Source of the DNA: an uncultured archaeon
GTDB lineage: Archaea > Aenigmatarchaeota > Aenigmatarchaeia > CG10238-14 > SCSR01
DNA length: 54,474 nt
Direction of reading: 5' to 3'
Assembly: GCA_964581305.1 (NCBI GenBank)
Contig: CAZONC010000001.1
Span: 1-54,474, forward strand
In this document: piece by piece, positions 20,232 to 52,942 of the stretch
How positions within the stretch are numbered: position 1 is the stretch's first letter
Layout: every line of letters starts with the position of its first letter
Made by a program: the position numbers and the translations under genes
The notes under the pieces: generated by a model
Told to the model about the DNA's origin: nothing
Seen by the model: only the letters and a program-made list of their open reading frames with translations
The model's database searches: none

Positions 20232-20531
20232 ATGGCAATAACAGTAAAAGATATAGCAGATATGTTTGGTAAAGACGTTTTTACAAGCAAAGGATCCTAT
20301 TGTGGAAAAGTATCTGATTTAGATTTTGACCTCTCCAGATTTAAAATACGCTCTTTAGTTGTTGAAGCGACACGTGAAGGTATATTTGGAAAATTAATTG
20401 GCAGTAAAAAAGGTGTGATTGTACCTTATCAGGCTGTTCAGGCGATTGATGACATAGTAATAATAAAACATGTGGTAACACAAGGATTGCCAGAAAAATC
20501 AGAAATAAAAGAAGGAGAGGAAAAATCGTAA
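20232..20531 (+). CDS. PRC-barrel domain protein
   Basis: 99 aa. VFTSKGSYCGKVSDLDFDL..FKIRSLVVE...IVPYQAVQAIDDIVII matches the PRC-barrel pattern. Confidence 0.7.
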   Translation: MAITVKDIADMFGKDVFTSKGSYCGKVSDLDFDLSRFKIRSLVVEATREGIFGKLIGSKKGVIVPYQAVQAIDDIVIIKHVVTQGLPEKSEIKEGEEKS

Positions 20532-20785
20532 TGGAAGGTAAAAAGCCTCTAAAAAAAGAGTTGAAGTGGAGTAAAATTGGAGATGTCTATTTATTAACAA
20601 ATGAAGGTAAAACGTATACTATAGATGCTGTATCATTTCTTGTTTGGATTCAGTGTGATGGAAAAACAGATGTGGAACAAATAGTAGATGTTTTTTCTGT
20701 AAATGGAAATAGAGATATAGTTAAAGCCGCAATTATTGGTATTTTGGAAAAATTAGCTAAAAAAGAACTAATTACATGGATCTGA
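20531..20785 (+). CDS. PqqD-family (RiPP-recognition-element-like) small protein
   Basis: 84 aa. YTIDAVSFLVWIQCDGKTDVEQIVDVF......IVKAAIIGILEKLAKKELI follows the PqqD winged-helix consensus. One-nt overlap with the PRC-barrel gene. Confidence 0.6.
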   Translation: MEGKKPLKKELKWSKIGDVYLLTNEGKTYTIDAVSFLVWIQCDGKTDVEQIVDVFSVNGNRDIVKAAIIGILEKLAKKELITWI

Positions 20786-49005: not shown

Positions 49006-51036
49006 ATGGGAAAGAAAATAGTTTTTTTATTGTTTTTTTGTTTATATTTTATAATTTATTGTAAAAATGCAGATGCAGCAACGATAATATTGCGACCCAA
49101 CTCAGCTGGCACATATCAAGAGTGGACCTTAGTTGATTCTACTCATTGGAATGCAACGTCTGATCAATCGGATGCAACCTACGTAGAAGTAACAGGCTCG
49201 ACCACATTTAGAGAAACGCTGAATCTGCAAAACTCCAACCTAACATATCCTATAAATTCAGTTACAGCTTATATGCGGTGCAAAGCTATAGGAGGCGCTG
49301 CACCAGAAAAGGCAAATATTCTTTGGCGAACTTACGGGACAAATTATGAAAGTGCGGCATTAATTATAGGTAGAAATGTTTTTGCTGATTATTCAGAAAT
49401 TCGAACTACAAATCCATATACAGGTTTGGCTTGGACATGGGATGAGATAAATTCTTTGGAGATTGGAAGTAGAGCTTCCGTTCTTGGTGGAGGTGAAAAA
49501 ATTCAGTGTTCAGAATACTGGATAGTCGTCAACTACTGGTCCCCGGAAGAAAATATTACAGATTGCACAGTATTAAATGCAAACGGGGTAACTTACTATT
49601 TAGTAAATGACATAATAGACAGTTCTGCAGCTAGATGTATAGAAATAACAGCAACGAATGTTACTTTAGATTGTCAAGGTCATGTAATAGATGGAATTGA
49701 TGCTGTTGATAGTTATGGAATTTATCATTCCTCTGCTACTGATATTGATGCGAAGAATGTAATTAAGAACTGTGTAGTGAGAGATTGGTATAACGGAATA
49801 TATTTTCGCAAATCGCATAACAATACTGTTACAAACAGCATAATTATCTCAAACAGCTATGGCATTCGACTTAATAGCGTTAGTTCAGCTCGAATCTATA
49901 ATAATCTACTGAATAATACGAACAATTTTTATTTTGAAGGTGTGTTATATACGAATAGTTGGAATGATACAAAAAAGATCGGAACAAGAATATATTCCCC
50001 TGGTATAGGCATAGGTGGAAACTACTGGACTAACCCAACCGGCACAGGTTATTCAGATACATGTACAGATAACAACACAGATGGTTTTTGCGATATTCCA
50101 TACACGCTAACTACAAACAATACAGACTATCTACCACTAAGCAATAAATTTGCACTGAAACTGGATGTGAACACAAATCAAAGCATTTACATAATAGGGC
50201 AAACTGTACTGGTGAGTGGTCTATTGCATGATGGTGGCGGGCTGGCGATACCAAATAATAATGTAACAATACGCTTTGCCTTTCCAAATGGCACAATAAT
50301 AAATGAAGAAAATGTGAGTACAAATTCATCCGGACAATATAGCACAACGCTTTTCCTTAAATTAACATTTCCTGGAGGTACATATACGGTAAATGCCACT
50401 AGCTATTATAATTGTTCAACTTTGACAGGTAACTATTTACTTAATGCAAGCAACAGTACAACTTTTGCTTGTGAATCGCTTTTTTTTGTAAAATATAAAT
50501 TGACCTATAGATTGGGTACAACAAAAGTAAATGATATTTATAGGATTGGAAATTACAGCGAAACAGTTGATAATTTAACTGTTACAAGGACACTTTATCC
50601 GTCTGATCTTATTCATGCGTACGTCTGCACATACGATAATACAGAATATTTAAATGGCCAACTGCTGGCGCTAATTCATTTTTACAAAAAAGAAAATTTG
50701 ATTTTCCTCAATTTTTCTGCCACTGAGACAAATGATAATTATACCATTGAACTAAAACAACAAATAAACAGTAAGTCATTGCTATCATTCACTAAAGGCA
50801 CTTGCCAACTTATAGATCAAAAAATGTATTTGATTGAGAATCAACAAATTCCAAGATCATTTGCAACTCTGGAATATGGCTTGCCAAAAGGACAAATTAT
50901 CCAAATAAGATTACAAAATGATCGGATAAAAATAAATGGCACAGACCGATTTGCAAAGGGAACTTTTAGAATTTGCATAGAATATCAGGGCCTAAGTGAG
51001 GATAAAAAACCAATAATATGGGTGAGAGAATGTTAA
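49006..51036 (+). CDS. secreted right-handed beta-helix (NosD/CASH-like) surface protein
   Basis: Signal peptide MGKKIVFLLFFCLYFIIYC. Parallel beta-helix repeats (NVIKNCVVRDWYNGIYFRKSHNNTVTNSIIISNSYGIRLNS...). Very many N-x-S/T sequons. Confidence 0.65.
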   Translation: MGKKIVFLLFFCLYFIIYCKNADAATIILRPNSAGTYQEWTLVDSTHWNATSDQSDATYVEVTGSTTFRETLNLQNSNLTYPINSVTAYMRCKAIGGAAPEKANILWRTYGTNYESAALIIGRNVFADYSEIRTTNPYTGLAWTWDEINSLEIGSRASVLGGGEKIQCSEYWIVVNYWSPEENITDCTVLNANGVTYYLVNDIIDSSAARCIEITATNVTLDCQGHVIDGIDAVDSYGIYHSSATDIDAKNVIKNCVVRDWYNGIYFRKSHNNTVTNSIIISNSYGIRLNSVSSARIYNNLLNNTNNFYFEGVLYTNSWNDTKKIGTRIYSPGIGIGGNYWTNPTGTGYSDTCTDNNTDGFCDIPYTLTTNNTDYLPLSNKFALKLDVNTNQSIYIIGQTVLVSGLLHDGGGLAIPNNNVTIRFAFPNGTIINEENVSTNSSGQYSTTLFLKLTFPGGTYTVNATSYYNCSTLTGNYLLNASNSTTFACESLFFVKYKLTYRLGTTKVNDIYRIGNYSETVDNLTVTRTLYPSDLIHAYVCTYDNTEYLNGQLLALIHFYKKENLIFLNFSATETNDNYTIELKQQINSKSLLSFTKGTCQLIDQKMYLIENQQIPRSFATLEYGLPKGQIIQIRLQNDRIKINGTDRFAKGTFRICIEYQGLSEDKKPIIWVREC

Positions 51037-51749
51037 AGGGTGTAAGTCCGTTAATAGGAACAGTAATTGTAGTTTTAATTACTGTTGGTGCTGTTTCGCT
51101 TGTACTAACCATTGGCAAGCCTGTTATTGAAAGATCGCGTGAATATGGCATCATATCTGAGGCTTTGCAGAATATGCAAACTTTTGATACATTAATAAGA
51201 GAAGTTGCTTCTGAGGGTGTGGGTGCACTAAGAACTGTACAGCTCAAAGTTAGCGGTGGGGAATATAAAATCAATCAACAAACAAATAGTATAGATTTTA
51301 CTTTTGCAGCTTTATACCCACCTTATTCGCCTGGAACTGTTATAAAGGAAGGCAATTTATTAATTTCCAGCGAAGCGAATGCAAAAGCATACGAGACCGA
51401 GAACGAACTAATACTTGAAAATGAAGTTCTAAAAATTTCAATTCAGAAGGTAGGAAATGAAACGAATCATCAGCCTATAAATACGAGTGCAAACATAAGA
51501 TCGATAACTTTTAAAAATAATAATGCAACTATTTATCCAGAAGATTCCTCGGTAATAATCAATGACCTGCCTTCTTCTTCGTATGGAACTGGCTATTCAA
51601 AGTTGGTAAAGATAGGCGATAATCTGCCACAAGCAGAAGCAATAGTTTATGTAAATTCAACTTTGATTTCATATGAAATTCTCTATTCTTTGCCTAGTGG
51701 TGCTGACTTTATCATTGTTAAAATACAAAAGTATATTATAAGTGATTGA
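51030..51749 (+). CDS. pilin-like protein with class III signal peptide
   Basis: MLKG|VSPLIGTVIVVLITVGAVSLVL N-terminus. An ATG at 51018 is the alternative start. The gene overlaps the end of the beta-helix gene. Confidence 0.65.
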   Translation: MLKGVSPLIGTVIVVLITVGAVSLVLTIGKPVIERSREYGIISEALQNMQTFDTLIREVASEGVGALRTVQLKVSGGEYKINQQTNSIDFTFAALYPPYSPGTVIKEGNLLISSEANAKAYETENELILENEVLKISIQKVGNETNHQPINTSANIRSITFKNNNATIYPEDSSVIINDLPSSSYGTGYSKLVKIGDNLPQAEAIVYVNSTLISYEILYSLPSGADFIIVKIQKYIISD

Positions 51750-51878
51750 ATGGTAAGTATAAAAAAAAGATTTCGTGGTTTGAAACAGCATTTGAAAATG
51801 TTTAAGCCGCGATGGCAAAAAGATATAGTGCAAAAATGGTGGTGGAAATACTATAAATTGAGAAAGAGAGTAAAATGA
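51750..51878 (+). CDS. unlisted 42-codon ORF encoding a Lys/Arg/Trp-rich peptide (MVSIKKRFRGLKQHLKMFKPRWQKDIVQKWWWKYYKLRKRVK)
   Basis: The ATG directly follows the TGA of the pilin-like gene. Its TGA overlaps the ATG of the radical SAM gene (ATGA at 51875-51878). It fills the whole otherwise non-coding gap, with no stop for 42 codons in stop-prone AT-rich DNA. Confidence 0.45.
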   Translation: MVSIKKRFRGLKQHLKMFKPRWQKDIVQKWWWKYYKLRKRVK

Positions 51879-52942
51879 TTGGGGCTATTAATGATCCTCT
51901 AGTTAAATTAGCACTTCCACGCTATGTTAATGTTGTAAATGATAAATTGCCGGCATTATTTTTAATTGCTAAACGCATAGAAGCTAAATTTTCTAAAAAA
52001 TTTTTAAATTCGCAACTATGGAATTTGCATGACCATCTCATGAAAAAATTTGAGATGATTAGAGAGAAAATTGATAAAGGAGAGATTGCAATTGAGGATT
52101 TGCCTATACAAAAGTGCTCGCTTCTTGACCTTAAGATTGAATTAGCAAAAAAAATTCTTCAATCATGTGAGTTTTGTGAAAGGAGGTGTGGTGTAAATAG
52201 ATTAAAAGGTGAGACTGGTTTTTGTAAGGCCGGACTAGAATGGAAAATTTTCGGTGCACATGCACATTACGGCGAAGAGCCTGAGTTGGTTCCTTCTGGT
52301 ACAATTTTTCAGGCTGCCTGTAGCATGGCTTGTGTTTATTGCCAAAATGCACCTGAAAGTATAAATCCTGATTTAGGTGAAACATGGAAGGTAAATGAGA
52401 TTGTAGGTTGGATTGAAAAAGCAAAGGAAAAAGGAATTATTAATATAAATTGGGTTGGCGGAAGTCCAACATGTTGGCTTTTTAATATTCTTAGCGCACT
52501 TAAGCACACAAATGTAAATATAGCACAAATTTGGAACTCCAATTCATATTATTCAGAAAAAACAGCTAAATTGATTAATGGTGTGATCGATCTTTATTTA
52601 CTCGATTTCCGATATTTTTCCAACAATTGTGCAGTACGACTAAGCAGTGCACCCCACTATGTTGAAGCGGCAAAAAGAAATCATTTAATGGCAAAGAGGG
52701 CTGGAGAACTTATAATACGAATTTTAGTAATGCCAAATCACATCGAATGCGATGCAAAACCAATTTTGAAATGGATAAAAGAAAATTTGGGAGAATATAC
52801 AAGAATAAATATTCTTTCGCAATACAGACCGTGCTGGAAAGCATTCGAATATAGAGAAATTGCTAGACCGCTTCGTTACGAAGAATGGGCAAATGTAGTC
52901 GAATATGCAAAAAAAATAGGTCTAAAAAACCTAATATTATAA
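51875..52942 (+). CDS. radical SAM protein, PflX-like (pyruvate formate-lyase activase homolog family)
   Basis: CxxxCxxC cluster motif ACSMACVYCQN. An upstream Cys cluster CEFCERRCGVNR...FC. 355 aa. Confidence 0.75.
   Translation: MIGAINDPLVKLALPRYVNVVNDKLPALFLIAKRIEAKFSKKFLNSQLWNLHDHLMKKFEMIREKIDKGEIAIEDLPIQKCSLLDLKIELAKKILQSCEFCERRCGVNRLKGETGFCKAGLEWKIFGAHAHYGEEPELVPSGTIFQAACSMACVYCQNAPESINPDLGETWKVNEIVGWIEKAKEKGIININWVGGSPTCWLFNILSALKHTNVNIAQIWNSNSYYSEKTAKLINGVIDLYLLDFRYFSNNCAVRLSSAPHYVEAAKRNHLMAKRAGELIIRILVMPNHIECDAKPILKWIKENLGEYTRINILSQYRPCWKAFEYREIARPLRYEEWANVVEYAKKIGLKNLIL

Follow-up and report, generated by a model that had tools for sequence, protein, structure and literature searches.

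In the window analysed here, the 54,474 nucleotides of contig CAZONC010000001.1 (assembly GCA_964581305.1) read on the forward strand, the whole gap between a gene for a pilin-like protein and a gene for a PflX-like radical S-adenosylmethionine (rSAM) enzyme is occupied by a small open reading frame (ORF) of 42 codons. The source is a DPANN archaeon of the phylum Aenigmatarchaeota with a strongly reduced genome, whose assembly (G000) comprises 430 kb in 21 contigs, is ~90% complete and has 34% G+C around the locus. The small frame runs from an ATG to a TGA at 51876-51878, and its product, MVSIKKRFRGLKQHLKMFKPRWQKDIVQKWWWKYYKLRKRVK, contains Lys or Arg at 16 of the 42 positions (38%), four Trp residues and a KWWWK core. 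On both sides the frame is packed against its neighbours, through a TGA/ATG junction upstream and an ATGA overlap downstream (Table 1). A preliminary description of this DNA had given these coordinates, both junctions and the composition, and all of them were reproduced in the sequence. As set out below, we are highly confident that the small frame is a real gene, that its product is conserved, very basic and predicted to form a single helix, and that its presence is independent of that of the rSAM enzyme.

Table 1. Features of the window considered in this study
Feature	Position	Strand	Evidence or remark
Secreted beta-helix (NosD-like) surface protein	49006..51036	+	PF05048 NosD, 4e-16; first gene of the co-directional string
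Pilin-like protein with class III signal peptide	51018..51749	+	Weak DUF7289 and arch_flag_Nterm matches
TGA/ATG junction between pilin-like gene and small ORF	51747..51752	+	No spacer; upstream stop TGA at 51747-51749
Gene for 42-residue polycationic, predicted single-helix microprotein of an orphan family	51750..51878	+	Homologues, pN/pS, AlphaFold2 helix
In-frame TAA of the rSAM frame	51854..51856	+	Sits where the rSAM ATG of L034 and L035 aligns (DNA alignment)
ATGA overlap of small-ORF stop with rSAM start	51875..51878	+	rSAM ATG at 51875; three bases common
PflX-like rSAM enzyme, 355 residues	51875..52942	+	PF04055, 52.1 bits (cut-off 29.5); PF13353 (Fer4_12)
Bifunctional-nuclease (BFN)-domain protein with N-terminal hydrophobic segment	52959..53495	+	PF02577 BFN_dom, 1.2e-26; last gene of the string
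PqqD-like protein	20531..20785		PF05402, 28.1 bits (cut-off 23.4)

Conservation of the small gene

The open frame by itself is suggestive of coding and not decisive, as it stays open in 1.1% of same-composition shuffles of its 129 nucleotides, and any of the three frames stays open in 3.3%. The case for a gene is carried by its relatives. Two metagenome contigs (L034 and L035) whose rSAM proteins are 72-74% identical to that of the window have an ORF of 37 codons immediately ahead of the rSAM gene, with the products MRVKKRFRGVKQALKRARAYLDRKWKYWRIYRYWKKK and MRIKKRFHKVRQALKMARAYWSKKWKNWRIYRYWKKK. A profile built from these two peptides and that of the window was used to locate small frames of 35-50 codons in the window's own Genome Taxonomy Database (GTDB) family, and the homologous products, counted from the first ATG, measure 35-44 residues. 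An extended profile of 21 sequences found a single copy in 25 of 301 genomes of the phylum, all 25 belonging to that one family, and no homologue in 256 other genomes of the phylum. The three-peptide profile added G081 as a clear and G082 as a probable member, which brings the count to about 27 of the 70 family genomes; these are metagenome-assembled genomes (MAGs), 56-96% complete, and 37-residue proteins are hard to detect across deep divergence, so that ‘absent’ may sometimes mean ‘diverged’ in such counts. A large metagenome protein collection provided 28 further members of 37-64 residues, all free of Pfam domains, and some homologues in NCBI MAGs named ‘Candidatus Aenigmatarchaeota archaeon’ are already annotated as ‘hypothetical protein’.

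The alignment yields the family consensus MVTIKKRFRGVRQNLKRARAYWxRKIYDKFWKxWKREKRIK, in which F8 is invariant and K5, Q13, L15 and R19 are nearly so. The ratio of non-synonymous to synonymous differences (pN/pS, Nei-Gojobori) lies between 0.00 and 0.32 in 15 pairs, and one pair (L129 and L130) differs by seven synonymous changes and no non-synonymous change. The low pN/pS together with the conservation identifies the small ORF as a protein-coding gene under purifying selection, and not as a frame valued merely for being translated. The earlier proposal of a hidden, real gene tightly packed against the rSAM gene is thus borne out by protein conservation in many genomes and by pN/pS values of 0.0-0.3. 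Its expectation that the ORF would persist in relatives that keep the rSAM gene held in part, since the closest of them (L034, L035 and L165) retain the ORF and most others lack it. The opposite reading, a chance open frame in A-rich intergenic DNA, might have drawn on the fact that the stretch is 44% A and hence poor in stop codons, and that, counting genes, 25% of the window's 42-codon frames are open; it is refuted by protein conservation across more than 50 sequences, pN/pS values down to 0, constant length and one copy per genome, and we regard its probability as negligible.

The window's own peptide is absent from a collection of 5.8 billion protein clusters in a word-indexed search with the single peptide, which is consistent with the ORF having been left uncalled. 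When 1.84 billion representatives were scanned in full with the three-sequence profile (HMMER), only two small proteins and no larger protein with the motif came up, so the peptide is not a split-off domain. No match to Rfam was found in the interval 51500-52100. Scans of all family members against Pfam (E<=10), NCBIfam and PHROGs gave nothing meaningful, and hmmsearch with the family profile over every chain in the PDB gave no match at E<=10. Judged by these sequence searches, the peptides constitute a previously undescribed, single-copy microprotein family limited to one GTDB family of Aenigmatarchaeota. The family is new in the sense that it has no Pfam or NCBIfam model and no literature on it was found, with a few members already deposited as hypothetical proteins. 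In one subgroup (P0022-P0027 and L166, 2272-2466) the proteins are 60-64 residues long and have a conserved extra C-terminal segment, ...LKFYN[LV]KNKKKYNA...; at L166 the gene for this longer form runs 26 nucleotides into the start of the BFN nuclease gene.

Predicted structure

AlphaFold2, given an alignment of 31 sequences, predicts a single helix over residues 4-41 with a mean predicted local distance difference test score (pLDDT) of 82.6. Conservation spans the whole helix and is highest at residues 5-22, the C-terminal tail being variable. Read against the alignment, a helical wheel would place I4, F8, V11, L15, A18, W22 and I26 in a narrow hydrophobic stripe with a/d-like spacing, the remainder of the surface being Lys and Arg. 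Family members carry a net charge of +11 to +19 (+15 for the window peptide), an isoelectric point of 10.7-12, five to nine aromatic residues and no Cys, and the short forms contain 38-46% Lys plus Arg. The mean Eisenberg hydrophobicity ranges from -0.25 to -0.57, and the peptide is therefore too hydrophilic for a surface-seeking membrane peptide. Neither a signal peptide nor a transmembrane segment was found in the peptide, and no cleavage motif is evident in the alignment. A Foldseek search with the single-helix model returned no match, as expected for a lone helix.

Start of the rSAM gene and its overlap with the small gene

The preliminary description had considered a conserved rSAM start further upstream, which would place the region in a different frame. 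The in-frame TAA (Table 1) makes such a start impossible, and a longer rSAM protein is excluded by this stop together with the conserved start position in relatives. Their rSAM proteins begin at the equivalent position or a few codons earlier with the N-terminus MWxLxRPDAxxALEDPLVKK, of which MWxLxRPD is kept in nearly all relatives and lost in the window enzyme. The latter starts about seven codons later than its relatives, and the tail of the small ORF is five residues longer and overlaps the new start. The alignment suggests that the TAA marks a start shift that let the small-ORF tail extend. The window enzyme may thus be N-terminally trimmed, perhaps as a side effect of the overlap (51854-51900).

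The spacing of the small gene shows the same compactness elsewhere. Similarly tight upstream junctions, of a few nucleotides or with an overlap, are found in g24, G045, L165 and L166, and in L034, L035 and L165 the peptide and rSAM genes lie 1-11 nucleotides apart and do not overlap. In L034 and L035 a divergent pilin gene and an A/T-rich, TATA-like stretch precede the peptide gene, which is the first cistron of its unit there.

Gene neighbourhood

The small gene belongs to a co-directional string of genes whose composition changes between lineages. A pilin-like gene is its commonest immediate upstream neighbour. The cluster of the beta-helix protein (c3) is conserved upstream of that of the pilin-like protein (c4), and c4 lies upstream of the small gene in G000, G045 and g24; in L165 and L166 the upstream proteins are of the DUF7289/Laminin_G_3 type. 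Downstream, the BFN gene recurs in L034, L035, L165 and L166. The peptide gene is directly adjacent to the rSAM gene in the window, L034, L035 and L165 (where the rSAM is 50% identical). In the six g24 genomes and in G045 the order is adhesin, pilin-like gene, peptide, pyrG and rSAM, with Ku next in G023, for which the downstream flank was read. The order is pyrG then peptide in g6 and g36, and a YchF-like GTPase gene precedes the peptide gene in g19 and L164, in some cases with Ku after it. At L166 the peptide gene stands between the pilin-like gene and the BFN nuclease gene with no rSAM gene in between, and in G010 the pilin-like gene is followed by the rSAM gene after a 20-nucleotide gap, with neither peptide nor pyrG.

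pyrG lies directly upstream of the rSAM gene in several genera, including members of the order's families f2 and f4, and the pair is old because its adjacency extends this far. Among relatives (L006-L009, L016 and L017), pyrG stands directly before a PflX-like rSAM gene in many genomes across at least three families, often with Ku after it, as an old and unexplained string. pyrG, which encodes CTP synthase, is present in 45 of the 70 family genomes and missing from five of the six g11 genomes, and a tblastn search of the G000 assembly found neither pyrG nor Ku. In the archaeon of the window, CTP must then come from salvage or from a host. The simplest history of the direct peptide-rSAM adjacency in the window would be the loss of pyrG from between the two genes; an ancestral direct adjacency may be the other history.

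This variety also bears on the reading in which the small frame is a purely regulatory upstream ORF (uORF), where the act of translation alone would couple or tune the downstream gene. The ATGA overlap with the rSAM gene and the tight junctions elsewhere are what such a uORF would show, but selection on the amino acid sequence is strongly purifying, the family keeps its length and helix pattern, and the downstream gene varies by genus (rSAM, pyrG, Ku, BFN, an epimerase and others). We give this reading hardly any credence.

Relation to the rSAM enzyme

The rSAM enzyme carries the CX3CX2C motif as C149/C153/C156 and a further N-terminal set, C98-x2-C101-x3-C105...C117. The label PflX-like is a provisional one: NCBIfam gave only sub-threshold matches, to glycyl-radical activases, no sequence relative was found in the PDB, and no literature was found on PflX radical SAM proteins or COG1313. 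No SPASM domain and no RiPP recognition element (RRE) was detected by Pfam, which matched only Radical_SAM and Fer4_12. Orthologues occur in 28 of the 70 family genomes (E<=1e-56). The g19 genomes hold only a shorter, divergent, paralogue-like rSAM (e.g. G071:C4:11161-12039; E ~1e-35 to 1e-39), which aligns with residues 78-351 and shows no linkage to the peptide gene. Among GTDB relatives, the one with the most similar rSAM (52% identity; L002, G012:C6:12055-16107) is a striking outlier in composition within one family, with 60% G+C at this locus against 24-47% in all other relatives.

It had been proposed that the small ORF encodes a precursor of the streptide type, that is, a ribosomally synthesized and post-translationally modified peptide (RiPP) or other dedicated substrate, in which the rSAM enzyme would install a crosslink (e.g. 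Lys-Trp) or another modification, possibly with the PqqD-like protein as recognition element. Several observations fit this idea: in four lineages (window, L034, L035 and L165) the rSAM gene comes directly after that of the peptide, g24 and G045 have both genes in one string, the peptide is rich in Trp and Lys, and the PqqD-family protein suggested for the window is genuine (Table 1). The genome comparison, however, does not support a dedicated pair. Of the 70 family genomes, the peptide is found in 27, the rSAM orthologue in 28 and both in 9, where 10.8 would be expected if they were independent. The peptide occurs without the rSAM in at least 13 genomes, including all ten peptide-positive g6 genomes (several of which consist of 3-8 contigs and are >90% complete) and G048, G016 and G085, as well as at locus L166; conversely, fourteen genera of the family and many archaea outside it have the rSAM without the peptide. 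pyrG separates the two genes in g24 and G045, the enzyme has neither SPASM nor RRE domain at the Pfam level, and the entire peptide appears to be conserved as one helix with no evident split into leader and core.

The PqqD-like protein fares no better as a RiPP helper. Its gene lies 31 kb from the small ORF, between a PRC-barrel gene and dph2. Strong orthologues of the protein (E<=1e-26), with 57-79% identity along their full length, occur in about 13 genera of the family and show no consistent overlap with either the rSAM set or the peptide set. The g24 genomes hold a second, divergent PqqD-like copy. A glycyl-radical role for the peptide, as an activase substrate with RFRG as its motif, was also considered and rejected, the Gly not being conserved (G, K or H at this position). 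We keep the probability of a RiPP precursor very small, and above zero because the two genes, when both are present, are nearly always in one gene string.

Possible function of the microprotein

The explanation that we favour, at a probability of roughly 45% for the whole, combines the gene family, the history of the gene block and a polyanion-binding helix. The microprotein gene sits in a conserved co-directional block of a beta-helix adhesin gene, the pilin-like gene, the peptide gene, optionally pyrG and optionally the PflX-like rSAM gene, and then BFN nuclease or Ku, whose members come and go between genera. With pyrG absent from the 430-kb genome, the peptide gene would have come to abut the rSAM gene, and its tail would have extended over what had been the first ~7 rSAM codons, creating the ATGA overlap. 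Translation of the rSAM gene would then depend on termination-reinitiation after the small ORF, probably as a by-product of compaction. The peptide would act without depending on the rSAM enzyme. Its broad Lys/Arg face and the conserved aromatic residues F8, W22 and W31 could bind RNA, with rRNA or another structured RNA as the likeliest target, and possibly DNA, and the hydrophobic stripe could contact a partner protein or a second copy of the peptide.

The functional part of this explanation is the more tentative one, and we give it somewhat less than even odds. A charge density like that of the smallest ribosomal proteins, the conserved aromatics, the low hydrophobicity and the lack of a signal peptide suggest a polyanion binder, most likely of structured RNA or the ribosome and possibly of DNA, and the small nucleic-acid-binding protein that the preliminary description had listed as an alternative thereby becomes the preferred reading. 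Several points weigh against it. Nucleic-acid binding is suggested by composition and fold only, and the neighbours of the gene are not ribosomal-protein operons. Upstream, the gene most often adjoins one for a pilin-like protein or an adhesin, and this could indicate a role at the cell surface. The spread within the family is patchy, five of the six g11 genomes lacking the peptide and also pyrG, and this dispensability argues against a core ribosomal role. Genomes that have both the peptide and the rSAM enzyme nearly always encode them in one gene string, which makes an optional interaction conceivable. In a more novel and somewhat unlikely variant, the peptide is a lineage-specific, dispensable, ribosomal-protein-like helix associated with the ribosome or RNA and born in one family, or, with less likelihood, an optional substrate of the rSAM enzyme where both are present.

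The main rival places the peptide at the cell surface, or directs it at a host, as a cationic amphipathic helix produced alongside the adhesin and pilin-like proteins and acting on the cell's own or the host's membranes or in pilus assembly. In at least five lineages its gene adjoins or overlaps, stop to start, a pilin-like, DUF7289 or Laminin_G_3 gene, L034, L035 and L122 have divergent pilin genes upstream, and the peptide is rich in Lys and Trp, as cationic antimicrobial peptides are. Yet it has neither signal peptide nor transmembrane segment, its mean hydrophobicity is strongly negative with a narrow hydrophobic stripe, and in g6, g19 and L164 the gene is not near pilin genes and sits beside pyrG or the YchF-like GTPase gene. 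We consider such a role unlikely.

A known ribosomal protein in divergent form could also account for a small basic helix. The peptide matches archaeal eL41/eS32 in size, charge and single-helix shape, the 36-37-residue, basic, Trp-containing protein of Thermococcales being its closest known look-alike, and no eL41 is detectable in the family, nor canonical eL39 anywhere in the phylum. Against eL41/eS32, hhalign gave a probability of 0.4% for the family profile aligned with the eL41 alignment, and the identity suggested by size and shape was rejected on this result; the family profile also lacks any PDB chain or Pfam match at E<=10. The search for canonical eL41 (PF05162) in the family was negative with low power, since control archaea also fell below the cut-off. 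eL39 had been considered for an apparent likeness (IKRF...Q...W) and was likewise rejected: PF00832 matched neither the peptide nor anything in the 70 family genomes or in 151 genomes of the phylum, and four of four control archaea passed the cut-off. Because the absence of eL39 is phylum-wide, whereas the peptide is confined to one family and to fewer than half of its genomes, it does not qualify as a family-specific replacement for eL39. A divergent copy of either protein is therefore very unlikely.

The conserved small gene adds a well-supported and so far unannotated microprotein family to a group of archaea that are uncultivated and have very small genomes (430 kb in this case), where each gene that is kept is informative. 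The locus also calls for caution in genome mining, as a Trp- and Lys-rich small ORF overlapping an rSAM gene resembles a RiPP cassette, while comparison points to the loss of an intervening pyrG. Should the peptide turn out to bind RNA or the ribosome, it would be one of the rare cases in which a ribosomal-protein-like factor has arisen recently; if it is instead an optional rSAM substrate, it would be the first substrate for an uncharacterized rSAM family.

Comparison with known systems

As an orphan microprotein, the peptide falls into a generally familiar class, the small cationic helices, and four known systems offer a measure of how far the likeness goes. What the window shares with radical SAM RiPP systems such as streptide (StrA/StrB/StrC) and PqqA/PqqD/PqqE is a peptide rich in Lys and Trp, encoded by a small ORF immediately ahead of an rSAM gene, and a PqqD-family protein. 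Here, in contrast, the rSAM has no recognisable RRE or SPASM domain, the peptide, rSAM and PqqD-like genes are not co-distributed, and the peptide persists in genomes lacking the rSAM and appears to be conserved throughout rather than as leader plus core.

Leaderless cationic bacteriocins such as aureocin A53 and lacticin Q are made with no leader, measure 40-50 residues, are rich in Lys and Trp and are helical. The peptide family resembles them in being apparently leaderless, of similar length, Lys- and Trp-rich and, by prediction, helical; the bacteriocins are, however, much more hydrophobic multi-helix bundles with dedicated exporters, whereas the family combines its low hydrophobicity and its charge of +11 to +19 with no transporter neighbour.

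Archaeal eL41/eS32 (Pyrococcus abyssi, PDB 6SW9 chain 0, 36 residues), which forms a single helix, is like the peptide short, ~40-60% Lys/Arg, Trp-containing, free of Cys and easily missed by gene callers. It differs in that there is no sequence or profile similarity between the two, and in that the peptide is patchy within one family and mostly not beside translation genes. Arginine-rich-motif helices (HIV Rev/Tat, lambda N) are short, highly basic and bind structured RNA, and with the basic tails of ribosomal proteins they share the short basic helix with a few aromatics and the structured-RNA binding that the peptide may have; those helices are segments of larger proteins or of viral regulators, whereas the peptide is a free-standing, conserved archaeal gene product.

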